A program made the position numbers and the translations under genes. The notes under the pieces were generated by a model, which was not told where the DNA came from, ran no database searches, and worked only from the letters and a program-made list of their open reading frames with translations. Shown here piece by piece: positions 8,235-61,528 of a stretch of DNA of 64,000 nucleotides. The stretch's first letter is position 1; each line of letters opens with the position of its first letter. Source of the stretch: Escherichia coli (GTDB lineage Bacteria > Pseudomonadota > Gammaproteobacteria > Enterobacterales > Enterobacteriaceae). Location of the stretch: NCBI RefSeq assembly GCF_003018235.1, contig NZ_CP027437.1; one strand, 5' to 3'.

Positions 8235-9419
8235 TTAATTCAATCGTTCAATCACTATCGCAATTCCCTGACCGCCACCAATGCACAGCGTTGCCAGACC
8301 CAGCGTTTTATCGTGTGCCTGCATTGCATGTAGCAGTGTGACCAGAATACGTGCACCGCTGGCACCGATAGGATGCCCCAGCGCGATAGCCCCGCCGTTG
8401 ACATTCACTTTCTCAGGATCAAAGCCCAGCGTTTTCCCTACAGCAAGGAACTGCGCGGCAAATGCTTCATTGGCTTCGATGAGATCAATGTCTGCCAGTT
8501 GCAGCCCCGCCAGTTGTAACGCTTTTTGCGTGGCAGGTACTGGCCCCATACCCATCATTGAGGGAGCCACGCCGCCGCTGGCATAACTTTTAATGCGTGC
8601 CAGTGGGGTAAGGCCTGCTGCCAGTGCCGCAGATTCTTCCATAATCACCAGTGCGGCAGCACCGTCGTTAATGCCAGACGCGTTCCCGGCGGTGACTGTT
8701 CCTGCTTTATCGAAGGCCGGGCGCAATGCGCCTAACGCTTCAGTCGTAGAATCCGCTTTCGGGAATTCGTCTTGACTGAAGACGAAGGTTTTCTTCCGAG
8801 TGACAACATTTACCGGGACGATTTCGGCTGTAAAAGCACCGGACTCAATTGCGGCTGCCGCTTTACGCTGTGAATGTAGCGCCAGTTCATCCTGCATTTC
8901 TCGGGTAATTCCGTACTCTTTGGCCACGTTCTCGGCGGTAATCCCCATATGATAACCATGGGTGGCGCACATCAGACCATCGCGCAGGATTACGTCATAA
9001 ACCTGTCCGTCTCCAAGACGATAACCAGAGCGTGCTTTTGCATCGAGTAAGTAGGGCGCTAAACTCATATTTTCCATACCCCCCGCCACAATGCTTTGCG
9101 CCTGACCTGCCTGAATTGCCTGGGCGGCAAGCGCCACACTTTTAAGACCCGAACCACACACTTTATTGACCGTGAATCCGCACACCGTTTCTGCCAGTCC
9201 GCTTTTTAACAGTGCCTGACGTGCCGGATTTTGCCCCAACCCGGCTTGCAACACGTTACCCATAATCACTTCATCAATGTGTAGTGAATCGATTTTTGCA
9301 CGTTCAATGGCGGCTTTAATTACTGTCGCCCCCAGGTCGATGGCGCTGGTGGAAGCGAGTGAACCGTTAAAACTACCGATAGCAGTACGTACCGCACTGA
9401 CGATGACACAATTTTTCAT
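8235..9419 (-). CDS. atoB: acetyl-CoA acetyltransferase (thiolase II)
   Basis: 394-aa ORF with thiolase motifs (NKVCGSGLK active-site Cys region, C-terminal [12 protein letters not shown]); located downstream of atoDAE. Confidence 0.9.
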
Positions 9420-9449
9420 TTTTTATTCCTTCTGTCTGTAGGGTTGCCG

Positions 9450-10772
9450 TCAGAACAGCGTTAAACCAATGACGAAAATGACGCCGGAGAAGAGCAGGGC
9501 AGTGATGCAATAGCCCATGATGTCGCGGACACCGAGTCCGGCGATTGCCAGTGCTGGCAGCGCCCAGAATGGTTGTGCCATGTTCATCCATTGCTCGCCG
9601 TAGGCGATCGCCATTACCGATTTACCGAGATCAGCGCCCAGCGCCTGGGCTGCGGGTATCACGAAAGGTCCCTGAATAACCCAGTGACCGCCGCCAGACG
9701 GAACGGCGAAGTTAATCAGTGCAGAACTAAAAAAGGTCATTACCGGGAAGGTGTCTTTGTTCGCAACATTGATGAAGAATTCGGTAATGAGTCCGCCCAG
9801 ACCGGAATGCTCCATCATCAGTTGGATCCCAGCGTAGAAGGGGAATTGCACCAGAATACCGGCAGTACTGCGTGCTGCCGCGCTGATAGCACGCATATAA
9901 GCCATTGGCGTTTTATGTAGCAGCAGACCCGCAATCATAAACATCAGGTTGACGGTATTGATGGTGATGTTGAAGCCATGTTCGCTGAAGTACATCGCAA
10001 GGTAAGCGATACCGAGTGCGCCGATGATCAACGTCAGAATGCGGCTTTCTTCCAGTCGCTCGGATGGTGGGGCATCTTTCGGTAGCTGCTTTTGAAAATC
10101 AGCCTCTTCCATGAGTAGTTTCGGATCGATACTCACCACGTCAGACGGTTTTGGCATCATCATGCGGGTGATAAATGGCATCACCACAATCAACGCCACA
10201 GTGATGAAAATGTTAAAACCACTGAACAGAGTATCGCCCACCGGGATCAGCCCGGCGATATGCTCAACCGGGTTGCCCGGTGTTGCAGCCAACAGAGGCA
10301 TTGAGCCAGAGAAACCGCCACCCCAGGTGAGAAAACCAATGTAGGCGCAGGCAATGAGCAACGGATAATCAGAACCGGGTACTCGGCGGGCGACTTCACG
10401 GGCAAACATTGCGCCGACAACCAAACCAAATCCCCAGTTGATGACACAAGCGACTGAACCGAAGAAAGTGACCAGCATGACGCCCTGTACGGGCGTCTTT
10501 GCGGCGGAGGCGGCAGTACGCAACAAACTTTTTACCGGAGCGGAGCTGGCAAGGGCATGACCGGTAACGATGATAAGCGCCATCTGCATACCAAACGCCA
10601 GTAAGTTCCAGAAACCGTCACCCCACATTTTCACCATGCTGATCGGCGTTTGTGGTGTTAACCAAAGCGCGATCACGAAAGTTAGCAATGTCAGCAACAT
10701 GGCAAAGATCAGTGGATCGGGAAGCCACCGGCTGACAAAACGCGTCATAAAACGCGATATGCGACCAATCAT
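9450..10772 (-). CDS. atoE: short-chain fatty acid transporter
   Basis: 440-aa polytopic membrane protein ORF between atoA and atoB. Confidence 0.85.
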   Translation of the reverse strand: MIGRISRFMTRFVSRWLPDPLIFAMLLTLLTFVIALWLTPQTPISMVKMWGDGFWNLLAFGMQMALIIVTGHALASSAPVKSLLRTAASAAKTPVQGVMLVTFFGSVACVINWGFGLVVGAMFAREVARRVPGSDYPLLIACAYIGFLTWGGGFSGSMPLLAATPGNPVEHIAGLIPVGDTLFSGFNIFITVALIVVMPFITRMMMPKPSDVVSIDPKLLMEEADFQKQLPKDAPPSERLEESRILTLIIGALGIAYLAMYFSEHGFNITINTVNLMFMIAGLLLHKTPMAYMRAISAAARSTAGILVQFPFYAGIQLMMEHSGLGGLITEFFINVANKDTFPVMTFFSSALINFAVPSGGGHWVIQGPFVIPAAQALGADLGKSVMAIAYGEQWMNMAQPFWALPALAIAGLGVRDIMGYCITALLFSGVIFVIGLTLF

Positions 10773-11419
10773 AAATCACCCCGTTGCGTATTCAGATCGG
10801 CGGCGACTTCAAACCGAGCTTCTGTTTTGGCACGCACGGTGGCTAAATCACACCCGTCGGCAATTTCGGTGAGCCACATTTTGCCGTCAATAAAACGAAA
10901 GACAGCCAGTTCAGTAACCAGCATATGCACCGCATGTTGCGCAGTGAGTGGCATGGTGCAGCGGCGCAAAATTTTTGCTGAACCATCTTTGGCGCAATGT
11001 TCCATGGCGATGATCACTTTGCGCGACCCGGTCACCAGATCCATCGCGCCACCCATACCGGGCACCATTTTCCCAGGCACTACCCAGTTCGCGAGGTTTG
11101 CTTCTTCGTCTACTTGCAAACCGCCGAGCACGCAGGCATCAATATGACCGCCGCGGATTAGCGCAAATGACATGGCGCTATCAAACATGGCTGCACCGGG
11201 TAAAACACCGCACGGTTGTCCGCCAGCGTTCACCAGATCTGGATGCGCTGTCGTGACCGGGCCTAAACCGAGGAAGCCGTTTTCCGATTGCAGAGTGATA
11301 TGAATACCCTCCGGTAAATAATTGGCGACCATTGTGGGTAAACCGATCCCTAAGTTAACGATGTCACCATCACGAAGCTCTTGCGCCACACGGCGCGCAA
11401 TACGTTGTTTCGCATCCAT
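10769..11419 (-). CDS. atoA: acetate CoA-transferase beta subunit
   Basis: 216-aa ORF overlapping the atoE start by 4 bp; CoA-transferase subunit B-like sequence. Confidence 0.85.
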   Translation of the reverse strand: MDAKQRIARRVAQELRDGDIVNLGIGLPTMVANYLPEGIHITLQSENGFLGLGPVTTAHPDLVNAGGQPCGVLPGAAMFDSAMSFALIRGGHIDACVLGGLQVDEEANLANWVVPGKMVPGMGGAMDLVTGSRKVIIAMEHCAKDGSAKILRRCTMPLTAQHAVHMLVTELAVFRFIDGKMWLTEIADGCDLATVRAKTEARFEVAADLNTQRGDL

Positions 11420-12081
11420 TATTTGCTCTCCTGTGAAACGATGATGTGGTCGATAACGGCACCAGGGGTGACAATATGGTCAGGTTGCAGCTCGCCGGTT
11501 TCGACCAGTTCATCCGGCTCTACCAGCGTGATATCAGCCGCAAGGGCTATCAGGGGGTTAAAGTTGCGGGCGCTAAGGTGATAGGTCAGGTTGCCAAGTG
11601 TGTCGCAACGATGAGCGCGAATTAGCGCCAGGTCGGCGCGCAGCGGGCGTTCAAGCAGCCAGGTTTTACCGTCGAGTGTCAGTGTCTGTTTGCCTTCCTC
11701 TACGACGGTGCCGACACCCGTTGGGGTGAGAAAACCACCAAGTCCAGCTCCACCACAGCGAATTTGCTCGATTAGCGTACCTTGCGGCACCAGAACGACG
11801 TCCATCTCACCAGATATCATGCGCCGACCTGTTTCCGGGTTGGTGCCGATATGTGAAGCAATCACTTTGCGGACTCGACCATTGACGATGAGCGGACCGA
11901 TGCCAGTATCAACAAACGCGGTATCATTGGCTATCAATGTCAGGTCGCGAACACCAGATTCCAGTAATGCTTCAACCAGGCGGGATGGAGTGCCAATCCC
12001 CATAAATCCGCCCACCATGATGGTCATGCCGTCACGAAAGAAGCCGGTGGCATCTTGTAATGTCATCAATTTTGTTTTCAT
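11419..12081 (-). CDS. atoD: acetate CoA-transferase alpha subunit
   Basis: 220-aa ORF, first gene of the atoDAEB operon, preceded by a sigma54-type promoter. Confidence 0.85.
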
Positions 12082-12127
12082 TTTTTATCCCTCTTGCATA
12101 CACCGTTGTGGGTACAGTCAGGGAATA

Positions 12128-12144
12128 GCAAGGGGAGTGCCAGA
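12128..12144 (-). promoter_or_regulatory. sigma54 (-24/-12) promoter of atoDAEB
   Basis: Minus-strand sequence TGGCAC-tcccc-TTGCT matches the sigma54 consensus (TGGCAC N5 TTGCA), about 50 bp upstream of the atoD ATG. Confidence 0.7.
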
Positions 12145-12224
12145 ATGAGATTATTGGATTTTGTTATTTAACTAATTGAATATGAAGGGATAAATTGGAT
12201 GGGGATTTATAAGGAGAATGAGCG

Positions 12225-12265
12225 GCTATGCAGAAAATTGCGCACTGTGCAAATTTCTGCATAGC
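12225..12265. promoter_or_regulatory. AtoC enhancer-binding site (inverted repeat)
   Basis: Near-perfect 41-bp palindrome GCTATGCAGAAAATTGCGCACTGTGCAAATTTCTGCATAGC between atoC and atoD; matches the AtoC site known from the literature (memory). Confidence 0.65.
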
Positions 12266-12276
12266 AAGTTTTGGCG

Positions 12277-13662
12277 TTATACATCCGCCGGATCGATACC
12301 GTATTCCTGGAGTTTATACATCAATGCACGGCGACTGATGCCCAGCATTAAAGCAGTGCGGGTTCGGTTTCCTTCTTGTTGTTCCAGCACTTCCATAATG
12401 ATGCGTTTTTCGACGCGTTTAATTTCCTCTTTTAAATTACGCTCTCCGACAGGGGATGTTTTTACCTCGCCAGCATTACAGACTGGCTGACGAATCTGCG
12501 GCGGAAGATCCTCAGAAAAAATGATCGGGCCTGAGTTCATCACGACGGCGCGTTCAATAACGTTGGAAAGCTCTCGAATATTTCCCGGCCATGACCAGGC
12601 GGTAAGCAGTGACATTGCCATCGGATCGATGTCGATAATATCGCGCTGATTCTCACTACTGAATTTTTGCAAAAAGTGATTAGCTAACAGGGAAATATCT
12701 TCCCGGCGATCGCGCAGAGGCGGCAGTATTAAATGAATAACGTTAAGGCGATAAAAGAGATCTTCACGGAAGGTGCCTTCTTTTACCATTGCCTGCAAGT
12801 CACGGTTGGTGGCAGCAATGATGCGGATATCAACTTTTATGGTCTGATGGCCGCCAATCCGTTCAAATTCCCGTTCCTGCAGAATGCGTAGTAATTTGGC
12901 TTGCAGTACGAGCGGCATTTCGCCAATTTCGTCGAGGAGAAGAGTACCTTCGTTGGCACGTTCAAATAATCCCTGACGCAAGGTTTGTGCACCAGTAAAT
13001 GCACCTTTTTCATGACCAAACAGTTCACTTTCGAGCAACGATTCCGGCAGCGCCGCGCAGTTGACTTTAATGAACGGCCCCTTTGCCCGCCGCGAATTGT
13101 AGTGAATCGCTCTGGCAATCAACTCTTTCCCGGTGCCGCTTTCACCGCTAATCAAGACGCTGGCCTGAGAAAGGGCAATTTTGGCGGTGTCTTTGCAGAT
13201 ATCCATCATCGCCGGGCTGTTGGTGAGAATGTGCCCCCATTGCCAGCTGGTGCTCAGTGCCTGGTGCAGATGACGGATCTCTTTTTTCATTGACTGGAGT
13301 TGTAAAGCGCGCTGAACGATTAAATTCAACTCATCGAGATCAAACGGTTTAATAACATAGTCGAAGGCCCCGCAGCGTAGCGCTTCGACGGCGGTTTCCA
13401 CTTCAGCATAGGCCGTCATCAGAATAACGGGGGTCCGTGTCTCATGGCTGCGCATCTCCTTGAGTGCCTTGATGCCGTCCATCTCTGGCATGCGGATATC
13501 CATCAACACCACGTCAGGGTGAATATCGACAAACAGGTGTAATGCTGTGCGTCCGTTGTTCGCACAATGTGTTTCGAATCCTTGTAGTGCAAAAGCGGTG
13601 CTCAGCATACGGCGAACATTATCTTCATCATCCACAATAAGGATGCGATTAATAGCAGTCAT
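12277..13662 (-). CDS. atoC: sigma54-dependent response regulator AtoC
   Basis: 461-aa ORF with receiver domain (ILIVDDEDNVRRML), AAA+ sigma54-activator motifs (GESGTGKE, GAFTGA) and C-terminal HTH. Confidence 0.9.
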   Translation of the reverse strand: MTAINRILIVDDEDNVRRMLSTAFALQGFETHCANNGRTALHLFVDIHPDVVLMDIRMPEMDGIKALKEMRSHETRTPVILMTAYAEVETAVEALRCGAFDYVIKPFDLDELNLIVQRALQLQSMKKEIRHLHQALSTSWQWGHILTNSPAMMDICKDTAKIALSQASVLISGESGTGKELIARAIHYNSRRAKGPFIKVNCAALPESLLESELFGHEKGAFTGAQTLRQGLFERANEGTLLLDEIGEMPLVLQAKLLRILQEREFERIGGHQTIKVDIRIIAATNRDLQAMVKEGTFREDLFYRLNVIHLILPPLRDRREDISLLANHFLQKFSSENQRDIIDIDPMAMSLLTAWSWPGNIRELSNVIERAVVMNSGPIIFSEDLPPQIRQPVCNAGEVKTSPVGERNLKEEIKRVEKRIIMEVLEQQEGNRTRTALMLGISRRALMYKLQEYGIDPADV

Positions 13663-15485
13663 ACAGTCTGATTTCCCTGCGGGTTGATCGGTAAAATAAG
13701 CGTGAAGGTTGCGCCGTAGCCCGGCAAACTGGCGACGCGAATATCACCCTGATGGGCATTAATGATGCGTTGACTTAACGCCAGACCAAGCCCGGTTCCA
13801 GAGGCTTTGGTGGTGAAAAAGGGATCGAAGATCTTTTTTTGCAGCGAGAGATCAATGCCACAGCCGTTGTCCTCTATCGAAATGGCCTGTTGTGAGTCGC
13901 TGTATTGCCAGGTTTGAATGCGAATTTTCCCTCGTGCGCTGATAGCCTGGACGGCATTGATCAGGATATTCAGTAGTACCTGTTTGAGCAGTTCACGATC
14001 GGCGTTAATCGGGCTTAATTCATTATCCAGTTCGCTTATGAAGTCGATCCGCGCTTGTACGCCAGCGGTTTGTACCAGTACCAGAGTTTCTTCAACCAAT
14101 GCATTGAGGCTGACTTGTTGCCATTGACTGTGGCGTGGACGTGAAAATTCGAGCAATTGCTGAATAACTTTGTTAATTGAATCGATTTCTTTGAGTACTA
14201 CGGACAGATATTCCTGATGTATTGGGTCGCTGGTTTGTTGGCGCAAGATCTGTACATAACCACGAATAGCCGTTAGCGGATTACGCACTTCATGCGCGAC
14301 GCCAGCCATCAGCTCACCCAGTGTGGCGAGGCGTTCTGCTTGCGCCATGCGGCGCTGGGTTTCTTTGCGGGCAGTTAAATCAGAGAAAATCACCAAAGCA
14401 CCTATCATTTCACCATGCGTGTTATGAATACGACTGGTAGTGACACTGAGTTCAATGGTGCGGTCACGGCCTGGAAAACTGATCTCCAGCGCTACATGTT
14501 CGGTGCCATGTTCCAGCGTATCCAGTACTGGACTGTAGAACTGAGTATTGTCGAACAACATGGAGTAAGGCTGCCCTACCAGTTCATGACGTTGATAGCC
14601 AGTGATGACTTCTGCTGCCGGGTTCATGGTGGTTACATCACCCTGGCGGTCAATGGCAATGACGCCATCGGCAGCGTTTTCAATAATCAGATCGTTAAGT
14701 GTCCGCGTTTCACGCAGTGCCTGGGCGAGGTTGTTAACACTCTGACTGATTTGCCCCATTTCACCGGGCAATTGTGGTAATCGAGTGGGAATATTTTGCG
14801 CCAGAGTCGAGAGGCCATCGGTGATGATATCAATATTGGCGCTCAGGCGACGGGAGAAAAGGACAATCAACAGCAGGCTTATCAGCAAACCGGCGGTGAG
14901 CACAATGATAATCCTCACATCCATTTTCCAGGCCTGGCGGCGAATATCTTCGGTTAATTCATTGGCCCAGATATAGCCGAGGATTTCACCATTACGCTCA
15001 ATGGGGATCATTGAATTCAAAATATCGCCGCGCACCTGCCTGCCTGAATAAACCAAAGGGGTATTTGTACGCATGACTTCGCGACCAGGGTGATCTGCGG
15101 CAATGGTAACGCCGACATTATTCTGATATAGCGCTGAAGGCGCGTAGGTGATTATCGCATCCAGCGTTTTGTTGTAATAACCAGCGCCGATGCCAGGGAA
15201 GGCGTGAGTGATATTTTCGGTAATGGGGGCAAGTTCTGCATTTAATGCGCGGATACGCTCCTCACGTGGTAAGTCGATGTAGAGATCATAGCGATCGCCT
15301 AGTGCCTGATTAAGCAGGTTGACCACGGCAGAAAGTTTTTTCTCTTTTTCAGATAAGACTGCTGAACGTCCTTCTGTTTCTACGATATAACCAATAGTAA
15401 GCGTTGGGACAATGACCATCAGGATTGCCATCAGAATCATTTGATTGCGTAAGCGGCGTGGATAAATCCACTTCATATAATGCAT
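13659..15485 (-). CDS. atoS: sensor histidine kinase AtoS
   Basis: ORF 13659..15497 with transmembrane segments, PAS region, H-box (HEVRNPL) and ATP-binding domain; start placed at the internal Met (MHYMKW) by inference. Confidence 0.85.
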   Translation of the reverse strand: MHYMKWIYPRRLRNQMILMAILMVIVPTLTIGYIVETEGRSAVLSEKEKKLSAVVNLLNQALGDRYDLYIDLPREERIRALNAELAPITENITHAFPGIGAGYYNKTLDAIITYAPSALYQNNVGVTIAADHPGREVMRTNTPLVYSGRQVRGDILNSMIPIERNGEILGYIWANELTEDIRRQAWKMDVRIIIVLTAGLLISLLLIVLFSRRLSANIDIITDGLSTLAQNIPTRLPQLPGEMGQISQSVNNLAQALRETRTLNDLIIENAADGVIAIDRQGDVTTMNPAAEVITGYQRHELVGQPYSMLFDNTQFYSPVLDTLEHGTEHVALEISFPGRDRTIELSVTTSRIHNTHGEMIGALVIFSDLTARKETQRRMAQAERLATLGELMAGVAHEVRNPLTAIRGYVQILRQQTSDPIHQEYLSVVLKEIDSINKVIQQLLEFSRPRHSQWQQVSLNALVEETLVLVQTAGVQARIDFISELDNELSPINADRELLKQVLLNILINAVQAISARGKIRIQTWQYSDSQQAISIEDNGCGIDLSLQKKIFDPFFTTKASGTGLGLALSQRIINAHQGDIRVASLPGYGATFTLILPINPQGNQTV

Positions 15486-18499: not shown

Positions 18500-18501
<2 letters not shown>
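15652..18501 (+). CDS. rcsC: hybrid sensor kinase RcsC
   Basis: 949-aa ORF with HisKA H-box (SHELRTPL), HATPase domain and C-terminal receiver domain (ILVVDDHPINRRLL). Confidence 0.9.
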
Positions 18502-18700
<199 letters not shown>

Positions 18701-22351: not shown

Positions 22352-22444
22352 AAAAAAAACCGGATGCGAGGCATCCGGTTGAAATAGGGGTAAACAGACA
22401 TTCAGAAATGAATGACGGTAATAAATAAAGTTAATGATGATAGC
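22352..22444 (-). ncRNA. micF: MicF antisense small RNA
   Basis: Minus strand reads GCTATCATCATTAACTTTATTTATTACCGTCATTCATTTCTGAATGTCTGTTTACCCCTATTTCAACCGGATGCCTCGCATCCGGTTTTTTTT, the MicF sequence with its terminator, divergent from ompC. Confidence 0.85.
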
Positions 22445-23906
<1,462 letters not shown>

Positions 23907-30444: not shown

Positions 30445-30449
30445 TGATG

Positions 30450-30590
30450 TGCCACATCCGGCATGGTATGCCGGATGTGGCGTATGCTGATAAGACGCGC
30501 CAGCGTCGCATCAGGCAACCGGCTCGGGCGTTGGATCGGATGCGGCGTGACCGCCTTATTCGGCCTACGGGTTGCAGCACTTCACAGTAG
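30450..30590. repeat. REP/BIME palindromic unit cluster between mqo and eco
   Basis: GCCGGATGTGGCG ... CGCATCAGGCA ... GGATCGGATGCGGCGTGA ... CCTTATTCGGCCTAC: REP-type imperfect palindromes. Confidence 0.75.
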
Positions 30591-47313: not shown

Positions 47314-47392
47314 GGGATTTTTGCACGAGAGTAGTTTAATTGAGTATGTAACTACATGATTTAAAATAATTTGTCTAATTCAACTTTTAAAC

Positions 47393-47417
47393 CGTATAAC
47401 CAAACGTATAACTAAAA
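47393..47417. repeat. CGTATAAC(TAAA) repeat pair at the yejO-proximal end of the island
   Basis: cCGTATAACcaaaCGTATAACTAAAA; the same motif recurs four times at 57463-57519 near the integrase. Confidence 0.6.
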
Positions 47418-47620
47418 TGATTTGCTGAAAAAGTGTACAATTTAAAGACAGATTTTCCCGGGGGTTATAAAACTGCGAAAATTTCGTAGTTATCCCGATA
47501 CGGGGATCACCATATCGGGATTGGATACCTGGCTTTTTTTCCGGTTAACTCTTAATCATCTGCGTGATCATAATGATGATTCAGCCAGCGCAATTTTGCG
47601 TTATCGGGAATATCAGCAAG

Positions 47621-47902
47621 TTACCGCCGTAACCGCTCCGGCTTCTTCCAGTGGTAGGTAATTTTTTCTTTCTCCCGATACATCTCCACGCGGCGCTTGT
47701 AGGCCAGCATTTCAAGAACGCGGATCCGTATGTCGCGCATATCCACATCATTAAGCTGGATACCATCACGGCGCATCACCTCAGCAACCACACACGCATA
47801 ATTTTCGGCGGTCACGCAGTCCGGCTGCGTAGCCTGTTCGTCAGCCTGCTGGCTGATTCCGGCAACTCGGCGGATTAATCGCAGTAGTTCGGCTTCTGTC
47901 AT
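47621..47902 (-). CDS. hypothetical protein, 93 aa, island-borne
   Basis: ORF from the supplied track, downstream (minus sense) of conserved repeat copy 1; no family recognised. Confidence 0.4.
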   Translation of the reverse strand: MTEAELLRLIRRVAGISQQADEQATQPDCVTAENYACVVAEVMRRDGIQLNDVDMRDIRIRVLEMLAYKRRVEMYREKEKITYHWKKPERLRR

Positions 47903-48063
47903 TGTGCCCCCTCGCGCTGGTTAAGAAAACAAGCTCAGATTTTTTGTAAAGAATCTGTCACGCTAAAAGATGTCGAACAAAAAACAATCACCTTCATCAT
48001 CTTTTTTACATAAAAACAATTAAAAACAATAATTTACATACATGATGATGATGGCGATAAAAT

Positions 48064-48140
48064 CATAAAAATGCGCTTTTTTCCGCGCCGACCCGCCCCG
48101 TGGACAGGCCCACCCCACCAGGAGGACCCGCAAAAAAGGC
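48064..48140. repeat. conserved GC-rich element of about 65 bp, copy 1 (abuts the capsid-gene terminator)
   Basis: TGCGCTTTTTTCCGCGCCGACCCGCCCCGTGGAcaggCCCACCccACCAGGAGGACCCgCAAAAAAG, about 85% identical to 50604-50690 by eye. Confidence 0.6.
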
Positions 48141-48169
48141 GGCATATTTGCCGCCCTGTAAACTGTGTA

Positions 48170-50065
48170 TCAGCCGGAAGCCGTACCGCTCGATTTGACC
48201 ATGCCGCGATAGTCCAGCGCGGCCACACCGGCATCAATACGAACCTTCCAGGCGACACCGTCAACGATGAAGCCTTCCTGCTGTTCAAGGTAAGGCTCGT
48301 CATTACCATCAAGATAAGCCACCTCGATTGTGTCCGTTCCCTGTGCTGAAAGCATGTACCATTGATTCACACTAACATCATCCAGACGAGGATCGACAAT
48401 AATATCCAGTAGCTTGTGATACGGGTTAAATATGCCGCTGTTTTTATCGGCCCCGAAAGGTGCGGTTGAATTAATCATTTGCAACGCGCGATCTTCCAGT
48501 GCTGCCGGAACTAACAGGAATTTAGGTGCAATGTTCAGCACCTCGCCGTTTTTATCTTTCTGTATGCGCATAGCGTGACGTGCTGCACTAAGCCCCGGCG
48601 TCGTCATGCCAAGATCGATAAGGTTGTTGTGTTTTTTATCAAACAAGGCCACACCATCAGACAGCTTGCCGTTTCCTGTAAGTACCAGATTAACCAGATT
48701 GCCAACCGTTCTGGCTGCTGCACGCCCCATAGCCATTGGCACGGTAGACAACTGATCAAGGTCATCATTGATTATCGCCTGGCGGGTAATACTGAAAATA
48801 TTCCCGTATGTAGCCAGCGCGATTGGCTCACCGCGATCGCTGGTGGTGATGTATTTATATTCTGCCCCTTCCGGCACTTTGTTTAATGTTGAAAAACCAT
48901 TCAGGCCAACGCGGCGGGCTTCACGGAAGTTTGACAGAGAACCTTTTTTAGTCCACTGGCGGAATGTTTCGCCGCTGTGCTCCCAGCCTGCCAGCACTGA
49001 TTTTTCAGCGCCACCAGCCAGGATGTAAGTAAAATCGCTGCTGCTGTGAGTGAATGCCGCATTAACAATCTGCGAACGCGTGCTGTAGCTGCCTGTGCTT
49101 ATGCCACGATGGGTTAATGATGCCTGTGCCATATCGAAAAGGCTCATCATGGCGTAAGGATTGCCGCGTTCGGCCTGTTCGTGACCAAGACGTGCGTTAA
49201 GCCCCTGACGCATGGCATCGCCGGTTATGTTGCCGTTATCCGTATACGCGTAGTAAAGATTTGCGGGGGTGTTTTTGTTGGTGGGTGTCGATTCCTTGCC
49301 CATAGCCAATAAAAGGCGTTCGCGCGCATCCTCAACGCTACAACCTGCGTCTGCCAGGCAGTTAATAGCCAGGTCGTTATATTTCCCGTTGAACGTGCCA
49401 AACAATTCGCGAATGCCGTTTAGTCGTTCCTGTTCGCCGCTGGCTTTGTTCTGGTTGATCATGTTTTTGATACTTTCCGGCATATTTGAAAAATCTCCGA
49501 TTCGTTTTGATTCAATTCTGGCCATTGCTGTAATCGCGGGTATAACCTCATCTGCGAAGCCGTTAGCCTTACACTCATTGCCATCCATCCAGGTTTCCGC
49601 CTCCATCATGGCGGTGATTTCCTGTTTGCTTTTTCCCGTTCTTCCGGCGTAGGTTTCCGCCATCGTGTCGCCCAGCTTGTCCATCAGGTCAGCAAAGCGG
49701 CGAACGTCGCCCGACACGCCAGAAGTAACACCACGGGGGGCATGTATCATCATCATTGCGTTAGCGGGCATCACGATGTGATCGCCACACATGGCAATAA
49801 ACGAGGCCATAGAAGCCGCTATGCCTTCAATGTGTACGATTTTTTTCGCCGGATGATTTTTCAGGGCGTTATAGATAGCCAGCCCCTGAAAGATGTCGCC
49901 GCCTGGTGAATGGATACGCAAATGGATTTCAGACACGTCACCACACGCGCTTATCTGGTCGGTTAATGTTGACGCCTGTACACCGTAACCGCCTATTTCG
50001 TCATAAATGCGAACGTGAAGGGCGTCGGCTTTTGCCTGTATGCTGTACCAGGATTTCATAGCCAT
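48170..50065 (-). CDS. phage prohead protease (ClpP/S49-like) fused to HK97-fold major capsid protein, 631 aa
   Basis: N-terminal part resembles ClpP-type head maturation proteases (HSPGGDIFQGLAIYNAL ... ASMASFIAMCGD); C-terminal part resembles HK97-family major capsid proteins. Assignment by sequence resemblance from memory. Confidence 0.65.
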   Translation of the reverse strand: MAMKSWYSIQAKADALHVRIYDEIGGYGVQASTLTDQISACGDVSEIHLRIHSPGGDIFQGLAIYNALKNHPAKKIVHIEGIAASMASFIAMCGDHIVMPANAMMMIHAPRGVTSGVSGDVRRFADLMDKLGDTMAETYAGRTGKSKQEITAMMEAETWMDGNECKANGFADEVIPAITAMARIESKRIGDFSNMPESIKNMINQNKASGEQERLNGIRELFGTFNGKYNDLAINCLADAGCSVEDARERLLLAMGKESTPTNKNTPANLYYAYTDNGNITGDAMRQGLNARLGHEQAERGNPYAMMSLFDMAQASLTHRGISTGSYSTRSQIVNAAFTHSSSDFTYILAGGAEKSVLAGWEHSGETFRQWTKKGSLSNFREARRVGLNGFSTLNKVPEGAEYKYITTSDRGEPIALATYGNIFSITRQAIINDDLDQLSTVPMAMGRAAARTVGNLVNLVLTGNGKLSDGVALFDKKHNNLIDLGMTTPGLSAARHAMRIQKDKNGEVLNIAPKFLLVPAALEDRALQMINSTAPFGADKNSGIFNPYHKLLDIIVDPRLDDVSVNQWYMLSAQGTDTIEVAYLDGNDEPYLEQQEGFIVDGVAWKVRIDAGVAALDYRGMVKSSGTASG

Positions 50066-50250
50066 GCCCCTAACGTGTGCCCATACCAGTACTCTACCGC
50101 GCTGCGTGCAATTTGCCCTTTGGTCGGTACTGGCATTCCTGGGTGATTTTCCCTTATGAACTGCTGATAGCGTTCAATCTTCTCCATCGTTCCGGCGTCT
50201 ATGTGCACTGTTGCGCTTTTATCCGGTTTTCTGGTGTTGTTCTCTGGCAT
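50056..50250 (-). CDS. hypothetical small protein (64 aa from the internal ATG with GGAGG RBS), upstream of and overlapping the capsid gene
   Basis: ORF 50056..50283; ACGGAGG sits 8 nt upstream of the ATG at 50250. Confidence 0.4.
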   Translation of the reverse strand: MPENNTRKPDKSATVHIDAGTMEKIERYQQFIRENHPGMPVPTKGQIARSAVEYWYGHTLGAWL

Positions 50251-50444
50251 AAATCCGCCTCCGTTTTGATTAACGGGCATCATTATTGATCGATAAAAGT
50301 AATAGATAAATCATTTTCTACCTAAAAATCAGATTATGATTTTTCTGATTATTTCGAGAAAAGCAAATCATTTGACGCATTATTGCTATTTTGGCAATAT
50401 TAAGTCTCATTCATTCCGGTAGTAGAAGTTCGTTTGTCGTACTA

Positions 50445-50481
50445 AAGCGCCTCCGGTAGCACCATCGGGGGCGCTTTTTTT
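50445..50481 (+). terminator. orphan plus-strand rho-independent terminator inside the island
   Basis: GCGCCTCCGG-tagcaccat-CGGGGGCGC followed by T7; there is no plus-strand ORF upstream of it. Confidence 0.45.
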
Positions 50482-50603
50482 GTGCCTGTTTTTTTTGTAA
50501 ATATTTTCGGGAATGTTCCAGTGGTGAACAAAAAACAACCATAATCGACACTGAAATTTTTATCAGCCAAATATATCAATAAGTTATGTTAGTGGTGATG
50601 GTG

Positions 50604-50690
50604 CCATAAAAATCAAAAAATGCGCCTTTTTCCGCGCCGACCCGCCCCGTGGATGCCCCCACCAACCAGGAGGACCCACAAAAAAGCCGG
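50604..50690. repeat. conserved GC-rich element of about 65 bp, copy 2 (abuts the terminator of the int2/PerC-like unit)
   Basis: TGCGCCTTTTTCCGCGCCGACCCGCCCCGTGGAtgccCCCACCaaCCAGGAGGACCCaCAAAAAAG; the adjacent hairpin differs between the two copies but the block is conserved. Confidence 0.6.
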
Positions 50691-50708
50691 ATTGCTCCGG
50701 CTGTGTGC

Positions 50709-50984
50709 TCACTTCTGCGGGTAGTTGCGCCATACTGCTTTACCAATACCAGCTATCCCCATTTGTTTTTCAGTGCGATTAACTGACCTTTTCAGAGCGC
50801 CTAAATCATCCGGCGGCTCCGGTGGCCTCTGTGCCTTCCTGGAACATTCCTGCCGTCGCATTGCCACCTGTGCGCGTTCCTTGTCTGTCTCCACCAGCAT
50901 CATCACTTCACCCCATCGCGCCGCCGCCCTCCTGTAAAATCCTTTCGCCTCGAGTTCCTCCGCTATACGGTCATGTACCATCAT
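50709..50984 (-). CDS. small regulatory protein, possibly PerC family, 91 aa
   Basis: N-terminal IAEELEAKGFYRRAAARW resembles the PerC/Pch motif as I recall it; overlaps the int2 stop by 4 bp. Family call is tentative. Confidence 0.4.
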   Translation of the reverse strand: MMVHDRIAEELEAKGFYRRAAARWGEVMMLVETDKERAQVAMRRQECSRKAQRPPEPPDDLGALKRSVNRTEKQMGIAGIGKAVWRNYPQK

Positions 50985-51994
50985 TCACCACCTCCCGCAG
51001 ATGGCGATAAGCTGGCTTTGCCTCCAAGTGGATTAAACCTTATCGCCTCTGTCAGAAAATCCGGCGCAAAATGCGCGTAAACCATTGTCTGTTGTATGCT
51101 CGCGTGCCCCAGTATCCTTTGCAGTGTGATTATATTCCCCCCGTTCATCATGAAATGTGTCGCGAATGTGTGCCGTAATACGTGGGTGGCCTGGCCTTTT
51201 GGTAAGTCCGGTTTTACTGACTTGATGACCTCCCTGAACTCCAGATAATCCACATCAAACAACTGTCCCTTTTTACCTCTCGTTACAAGTTCCAGAACGT
51301 CATCAGACACCGGAACAGCTCGCGCCCGTCCGTTCTTCGTCTCCGTAAACATTACCTTGTTACTGACTATATTTTCCCGTCGTAGCGTCGATGACTCCCC
51401 ATAACGCGCCCCCGTCGAAAGACACAAAACAGCCAGCGCGAGACAGTCGCCTTTGGCAATATTCAGTAAATGATTAACCTCATCATCACCAAGAAAACTC
51501 ATAGCCTTGTTTGGTGCTTTCAGCTTGCGTAATCCACTCAAAGGGTTTTCACCGTGATACATACCGCATTCGATTAGCCCCCTGAACATTCCTGATATAA
51601 CCGACAAATCACGGTTAACAGTCAACGGACTAAGGCCGCATCCCAGCTTGTCGGCTCTGTATTCCATGAGCATTGCGCGGGTTATGTTGCAGATTCGTGG
51701 ATCCCCCATTTCACGGATAACCTTCATCATGCGCATAAACGATTGTTCGCCGTATTCCTCCGATCTTCCGATAAACTCCATCCATAAGTTAGCCAGATCA
51801 GATAACAGGCGAATATCTGCGGCGCGTGACTCCCAGGGCTTATTATGACAATGAAGCAGTATGTATTTTTCGTAATCACGGGCTTTTGTCTGCGAGGGAA
51901 AAATCTTTCTTATCCGTCGCCCGTAAGCGCCATTTGGCCTTACGTCAACCAGCCAGCGACCATCCTCACACTTCCTTATCGCCATGCTCCACAC
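50981..51994 (-). CDS. tyrosine site-specific integrase/recombinase, 337 aa (second integrase in the island)
   Basis: C-terminal catalytic region with HVLRHTFATHFMMNGGNIITLQRILGHASIQQTMVYAHF (R..HxxR..Y signature); size is typical of P2-type integrases. Confidence 0.8.
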   Translation of the reverse strand: MWSMAIRKCEDGRWLVDVRPNGAYGRRIRKIFPSQTKARDYEKYILLHCHNKPWESRAADIRLLSDLANLWMEFIGRSEEYGEQSFMRMMKVIREMGDPRICNITRAMLMEYRADKLGCGLSPLTVNRDLSVISGMFRGLIECGMYHGENPLSGLRKLKAPNKAMSFLGDDEVNHLLNIAKGDCLALAVLCLSTGARYGESSTLRRENIVSNKVMFTETKNGRARAVPVSDDVLELVTRGKKGQLFDVDYLEFREVIKSVKPDLPKGQATHVLRHTFATHFMMNGGNIITLQRILGHASIQQTMVYAHFAPDFLTEAIRFNPLGGKASLSPSAGGGE

Positions 51995-52226
51995 CCTTAA
52001 CGTTGATGGTTGTTACCTGTTCCGCTTCGGCTATCTCCCGTTCGGTCAGCGTGGCAAAGTTTGCCGCCGCTGTGGTCATGAATGCGCTTATCAGTTCGGG
52101 ATGTGCTTTCGCGTATCCTTCTCCCGTGTTGCGGTCTATCGTTCTGATTGCCACCTTTAAGGCGTGCTCTGTCATGTCTAATGCGCGATATTTTGGCGCT
52201 GCCTTATCTCTGGTTTTTCTGGTCAT
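51966..52226 (-). CDS. hypothetical small protein, 86 aa
   Basis: ORF between the replication ATPase and int2, overlapping the int2 start; no family recognised. Confidence 0.35.
   Translation of the reverse strand: MTRKTRDKAAPKYRALDMTEHALKVAIRTIDRNTGEGYAKAHPELISAFMTTAAANFATLTEREIAEAEQVTTINVKGVEHGDKEV

Positions 52227-61135: not shown

Positions 61136-61528
<393 letters not shown>

Follow-up and report, generated by a model that had tools for sequence, protein, structure and literature searches.

Regulatory elements of the known sigma-54-dependent atoDAEB promoter in the atoC-atoD spacer of Escherichia coli, with a cross-genus footprint in Escherichia and Citrobacter

The atoDAEB operon of Escherichia coli lies next to atoC, the gene of its activator, and the two are separated by a spacer of 195 bp. 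The question raised by this spacer is whether it carries a complete promoter that AtoC can act on, and whether that promoter differs from the one already described for E. coli. The DNA analysed was a stretch of 64,000 nucleotides, hereafter the window, and all positions are counted from its first letter. An earlier reading made without database searches (the sequence-only reading) had assigned a textbook sigma-54 promoter and an AtoC palindrome to this spacer. The assignment was followed up by motif scans with shuffled controls, comparison with published binding data, and alignment with other E. coli genomes and with orthologous loci. The segment 12116-12265 (minus strand) almost certainly comprises the promoter of atoDAEB, which depends on sigma-54 and is induced by acetoacetate, and the enhancer upstream of it. 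The locus is the already known E. coli atoDAEB promoter, in which all recognised elements are present base for base.

The ato genes and the regulatory features of the spacer are listed in Table 1. The gene directly upstream of the AtoC site is atoC itself, which encodes a cognate activator of the receiver/AAA+/HTH type. Three Pfam domains were detected in AtoC: Response_reg (residues 7-115), Sigma54_activat (145-311), and HTH_8, a Fis-type HTH (415-454). Its translation shows D55 and, in the AAA+ domain, the Walker A sequence GESGTGKE and a GAFTGA loop. Compared with the K-12 gene, atoS of the window has no internal indels and is intact; hence, the signalling input to the atoD promoter should work in the source strain. 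The atoS gene of strain ST2747, whose promoter region is 100% identical to that of the window, is annotated as 'frameshifted' by RefSeq.

Table 1. Positions of the ato genes and of the regulatory features in the window.
Feature	Position	Strand	Evidence and remarks
atoS	13659..15485	-	NCBIfam equivalog NF008468, 998.1 bits; sensor kinase phosphorylating AtoC
atoC	12277..13662	-	NCBIfam equivalog NF008469, 1001.7 bits; cognate enhancer-binding response regulator
atoD	11419-12081	-	NCBIfam equivalog model, 444.6 bits; ATG at 12081
atoA	10769-11419	-	NCBIfam equivalog model
atoE	9450-10772	-	NCBIfam equivalog model
atoB	8235-9419	-	NCBIfam equivalog model
Regulated operon atoDAEB	8235..12081	-	NCBIfam matches, ORF coordinates, RefSeq annotation of matching genomes
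Promoter-distal AtoC half-site GCTATGCAGAAATTTGCACA	12246..12265	-	Inverted-repeat arm; published ChIP-positive site; conserved
Promoter-proximal AtoC half-site GCTATGCAGAAAATTGCGCA	12225..12244	+	Inverted-repeat arm; published site; conserved
IHF-like site ATTCAATTAGTTA (candidate)	12169..12181	-	12/13 match to WATCAANNNNTTR; centred at about -59; between enhancer and promoter
Sigma-54 promoter element CTGGCAC-TCCCC-TTGCT (17-mer)	12127..12143	-	Unique motif match; identical to OS21
Transcription start (predicted)	12116	-	19 nt downstream of motif centre 12135, by the rule of PMC4591121
atoD 5' leader	12082..12115	-	Shine-Dalgarno-like AGAGGGA at 12094..12088; unusually conserved

The sigma-54 element was located by its consensus. 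The sequence TGGCACTCCCCTTGCT matches TGGCAC-N5-TTGCW exactly at 12142..12127 (minus strand). Its GG is at 12141-12140 (-25/-24) and its GC at 12129-12128 (-13/-12), one helical turn apart. The element is on the same strand as atoD, and the C of its -12 GC is 47 nt upstream of the atoD ATG. This was the only match on both strands of the 64 kb, even when one mismatch was allowed. The number of exact core matches expected by chance in the window was 0.09, and one or more appeared in 9 of 100 shuffles. The clean -24/-12 element described by the sequence-only reading is present as an exact and unique match. Expression of atoDAEB is reportedly rpoN-dependent.

Published data place sigma-54 on the same bases. 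Site OS21 of the sigma-54 ChIP-seq survey has the motif CTGGCACTCCCCTTGCT on the plus strand and belongs to the gene atoD; its predicted start is 35 bp from atoD, and EcoCyc lists the site as 'experimentally confirmed' (Bonocora et al., 2015, PMC4591121, Table 1). The window 17-mer at 12143..12127, with its centre at 12135, is identical to this motif. In addition, a genomic-SELEX (gSELEX) peak of the RpoN holoenzyme was found in the spacer between atoC and atoD (Shimada et al., 2021, PMC8743547). The PSSM score of OS21 is 9.39 and its FAT is 5, values that are modest to moderate among E. coli sigma-54 sites (PMC4591121). Given these scores, the label 'textbook' holds for the core motif only. 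From the position of the motif, transcription would start at or near 12116, 35 nt from the atoD ATG, in agreement with the geometry of OS21.

The second element is the palindrome, which starts 11 nt past the atoC stop codon. It consists of 41 bp, with 20-nt arms and a 1-nt centre, and reads GCTATGCAGAAATTTGCACA-G-TGCGCAATTTTCTGCATAGC on the minus strand (12265..12225). Eighteen of 20 positions are complementary; the two mismatched positions are T.T and A.C. No palindrome with 20-nt arms in the window is stronger, and its score is above the best score of all 200 first-order shuffles (mean 14.8, max 17). Even a search tolerating 3 mismatches found the half-site pattern nowhere else in the window. 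The centre of this dyad-symmetric site is 104 bp upstream of the GG of the -24/-12 element and about 129 bp upstream of the predicted start. Within each arm of 20 bp, two TGCA(G/C) pentamers are set at a distance of 10 bp (TGCAG...TGCAC and GCGCA...CTGCA). As judged from the sequence, the four pentamers would lie on one helix face, which is consistent with two bound AtoC dimers. A footprint reportedly extends from -146 to -107; +1 would then lie upstream of 12116 by about 2-3 nt.

The identity of the palindrome was assessed by comparison with the literature. Two ChIP-positive AtoC sites were listed for atoD, namely GCTATGCAGAAATTTGCACA on the plus strand at -184..-165 and GCTATGCAGAAAATTGCGCA on the minus strand at -163..-144 (Pilalis et al., 2011, PMC3118216, Table 5). 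Counted from the atoD ATG at 12081, these offsets correspond to 12265..12246 and 12244..12225, and the sequences are identical. The published AtoC sites thus lie exactly on the two arms and not elsewhere, and the palindrome is the AtoC site upstream of atoDAEB, as had been proposed. The proposed span of 12128-12265 is also correct: at one end stands the C of the -12 GC, at the other the outer edge of the palindrome. According to the summary in PMC3118216, AtoC binds this 40-bp inverted repeat in vitro and, in an acetoacetate-inducible manner, in vivo (ChIP and EMSA), and it activates sigma-54-dependent expression. The same paper calls the two 20-bp sites 'identical'. Its own table contains two differences between them; hence, 'near-perfect', the term of the sequence-only reading, is more accurate. 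Reporter data agree with this regulation. A plasmid with the atoD promoter gave acetoacetate-inducible GFP in atoSC+ strains and was silent in atoSC-, atoS-, and atoC- strains (PMC7618054). In a second reporter study, AtoSC raised the activity of the atoDAEB promoter (PMC10963238).

The spacer was then compared within E. coli. Relative to K-12 MG1655, it has three single-base differences, at 12275, 12162, and 12123, none of which is in a recognised element. All four blocks (palindrome, IHF-like block, -24/-12 element, leader) match K-12 atoDp base for base, and their offsets from the atoD ATG are equal too. The segment 11900-12500 is 100% identical to ST2747 and 97-99% identical to most genomes that carry the region; over its whole length, the window is about 98-99% identical to ST2747. 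The window is from a non-K-12 strain; ST2747 was rejected as its source on account of this overall identity and of a 10.3-kb insertion in the window. All listed matches that span the spacer carry the annotation atoC|atoD. Of the 3710 E. coli genomes with a match to the 41-bp palindrome, 3542 have it without a single changed letter. The atoC-atoD region is present in 3925 of 5426 complete E. coli genomes. A few genomes keep only the atoC end, such as strain 600055 with a partial match of 95 nt, and one copy is on a plasmid. This carriage, together with the partial and plasmid copies, marks the ato locus as accessory and variably deleted.

Orthologous loci were searched with AtoC as the query in one genome per species. 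Six true orthologue loci were obtained, one from a divergent Escherichia (L002; 90% AtoC identity) and five from Citrobacter (83-86%). The other 73 loci, which were either distant paralogues of the NtrC family or matched in the receiver domain only, were left out. The window, K-12, and the six orthologues were aligned. These 8 sequences, of which 7 are non-redundant, represent two genera and form a small set. In all six orthologues, the atoC stop codon is followed by a palindrome, then by an ATTCAA...TTA block, and then, ahead of atoD, by TGGCA(C/T)-N5-TTGC(A/T). The four conserved blocks have the same order as in E. coli and nearly equal spacing. Invariant columns made up 76% of the palindrome, 41% of the IHF-like block, 65% of the sigma-54 element, and 68% of the leader, and 7% and 9% of spacers A and B, respectively.

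The geometry of the promoter is conserved as well. The distance from the palindrome centre to the -24 GG is 104-107 bp across the 8 sequences (about ten helical turns), and that from the IHF-like centre to the GG is 33-35 bp. The -12 C is exactly 47 nt from the atoD ATG in 8/8 sequences. The TGGCA and CTTGC of the sigma-54 element do not vary in either genus; in L002 and in three of the Citrobacter loci (L005-L007), hence in four of the six orthologues, the -24 element is TGGCAT. The A/T tract of the half-sites varies: Citrobacter has AATTTT, L002 has AAAAATTT, and E. coli has AAATTT/AAAATT. The palindromes of Citrobacter and L002 are more symmetric than that of E. coli, with up to 19/20 positions paired. 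This cross-genus footprint is new here, and it gives modest support for the IHF site and for a fixed promoter geometry. It also supports a drift of the A/T tract that is symmetric between the half-sites. A further new observation is that the leader is as constrained as the promoter.

The DNA between enhancer and promoter contains the candidate IHF site. IHF is reportedly required. Around this site, the A+T content of the spacer is 70%, versus 48% for the whole window. Scanning the window with the IHF consensus gave 65 matches where 52 were expected, so a lone match is not significant. In the alignment, the core positions A1, T3, A5, A6, T12, and A13 are invariant across the 8 sequences and the flanks are scrambled; the positions of the 13-mer that define the consensus are those that stay invariant. 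It is conservation that gives this candidate its weight, and IHF may occupy it.

The leader, about 35 nt long, is unusually conserved: together with the -11 to +1 region (12082-12126), it equals the sigma-54 element in its degree of conservation across the two genera. Regulation of atoD by Spot 42 has been reported (Beisel, 2012, as cited in PMC7618054). Nucleotides 4-11 of Spot 42, GGGUACAG, are a perfect complement of CUGUACCC at 12117..12110, where the mRNA is predicted to begin. This is a single contiguous complement of 8 nt, and such a run occurs in about 10% of shuffles (P ~0.10). Within it, only the GUACCC core is conserved. Pairing of full-length Spot 42 with the leader was also modelled (RNAduplex) and was discarded as a candidate; the pairings were long and loop-ridden and no better than those of shuffles. 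The conservation of the leader may relate to the regulation of atoD by Spot 42, for which the 8-nt run is suggestive only.

An additional reading was considered in which the region carries two extra layers. The palindrome would double as a stable 3' hairpin on atoSC read-through transcripts, with the invariant A.C position giving a fixed polarity to the AtoC oligomer, and pairing with Spot 42 at the extreme mRNA 5' end would explain why the leader is conserved. We regard this combination as unlikely. Its first part is related to a rival explanation of the palindrome, namely that, instead of or beside its enhancer role, it forms an RNA hairpin (terminator or stabiliser) at the 3' terminus of atoSC mRNA. 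The closeness of the palindrome to the atoC stop codon speaks for a hairpin, as does the folding of the 86-nt RNA at -30 kcal/mol (z = -4.6), a stability reached by no shuffle. Moreover, at two positions the species differ in both arms at once, with complementarity kept. The covariation score was reached by 1 of 500 shuffles, but relatedness of the sequences can be enough to pass this control even where no structure exists, and a binding site for a protein dimer would predict parallel changes of the arms just as well. In 8/8 sequences, one A.C position stays unpaired, an asymmetry that selection for a hairpin should remove. No U-tract or T-run follows the stem, and the terminator scan of the minus strand was empty; the palindrome was accordingly rejected as a Rho-independent terminator, whose definition it does not fit despite the stable stem. 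Published ChIP shows AtoC binding to these very sequences. Overall, a hairpin role is quite improbable, and the palindrome is best read as the AtoC enhancer.

It could also be proposed that atoDAEB is driven mainly by sigma-70 and that the palindrome is the operator of a conventional activator or repressor. No support for this proposal was found in the analysis. A scan of 11900-12500 detected no sigma-70-like -35/-10 pair on the minus strand, AtoC is an NtrC-type AAA+ protein with GAFTGA, and sigma-54 has been found on the site both in cells and in vitro (PMC4591121, PMC8743547). A sigma-70 promoter with such an operator is therefore extremely unlikely. That both motifs are chance matches with no regulatory role deserves practically no credence: the consensus scans are weak when taken alone, as the shuffles for the sigma-54 core indicate, but the two motifs occur together and in the correct orientation between an activator gene and its target operon, keep a fixed spacing and their sequence across two genera while the neighbouring DNA is scrambled, and coincide with published ChIP and SELEX sites, so that conservation and binding data refute this reading.

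With the AtoC-dependent sigma-54 promoter as the preferred reading, the following course of events is proposed. Sigma-54 RNA polymerase would form a closed complex on CTGGCAC-N5-TTGCT (12143..12127). AtoS would sense acetoacetate and phosphorylate AtoC on D55. Phospho-AtoC would then occupy the 41-bp palindrome at about -129 and assemble into an active AAA+ oligomer, whose stoichiometry on the four pentamers we infer. A bend at the A/T-rich IHF-like site (about -59) would bring the GAFTGA loops of AtoC to sigma-54. ATP hydrolysis would open the promoter, and transcription would proceed from about 12116 through atoD, atoA, atoE, and atoB.

This arrangement resembles other sigma-54 systems. The NtrC-dependent promoters glnAp2 and glnHp2, the archetypes of enhancer-controlled sigma-54 promoters, likewise have GG/GC -24/-12 elements and dyad sites more than 100 bp upstream for an activator of the receiver-AAA+-HTH type. 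In glnHp2, an IHF bend lies between enhancer and promoter, as proposed for ato. The recognition sequences differ: the AtoC arms contain TGCAG-N5-TGCAC, whereas NtrC sites are TGCACC-N5-GGTGCA. In ato, two adjoining 20-bp sites form one 41-bp palindrome, whereas NtrC promoters have two separated dyads. The signal is different too, since ato responds to acetoacetate through AtoS, unlike NtrC promoters. The promoter element also resembles that of prpB. Its sigma-54 motif, GTGGCACACCCCTTGCT, is equal to CTGGCACTCCCCTTGCT of ato at 15/17 positions, including the C-rich spacer, and the distance from motif to gene is 36 nt for prpB and 35 nt for atoD (PMC4591121, table). Like atoDAEB, prpBCDE is a short-chain-acid catabolic operon adjoining its own activator gene. 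It differs from ato in its activator, PrpR, and in its upstream site.

Several observations were made elsewhere in the window. Compared with ST2747, the window has a 10.3-kb insertion at 47324-57647, between yejO and tRNA-Pro, which abuts the 3' end of the tRNA-Pro gene (57653-57726, minus strand). At least 80% of this insertion was found in 1 of 5426 complete E. coli genomes. In that genome, the region is annotated with integrases, a RepA-family helicase, a fusion protein of ClpP-like prohead protease and major capsid protein, and a DUF4222 protein. It looks like a small integrase-bearing, capsid-encoding island resembling a phage satellite. Direct repeats of at least 12 nt flanking the insertion were not found in the ranges searched. 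Rfam searches at the gathering score returned two naRNA4 elements (REP/BIME-type) at 18501-18577 and 18615-18691 (plus strand), just downstream of rcsC; MicF at 22352-22445 (minus strand), next to ompC; and the L25 ribosomal-protein leader at 61442-61467 (minus strand), upstream of rplY. All of these are expected in that part of the E. coli chromosome. Other long palindromes, with 16-17 of 20 positions paired, are located at 52333-52372 and 55750-55789, both inside the tRNA-Pro island, at 57775-57815 just beyond tRNA-Pro, and at 30446-30486, which looks REP-like.

The main use of this region is as a control of strand and coordinates, and our understanding of the ato system is unchanged. It served this use as the sequence-only reading had suggested: the ato genes are all on the minus strand, and the published offsets were reproduced. 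The region is used in acetoacetate biosensors (PMC7618054), and knowledge of its conserved bases has some practical value. If the proposed Spot 42 pairing is true, it would link catabolite repression to the extreme 5' end of a sigma-54-dependent mRNA.
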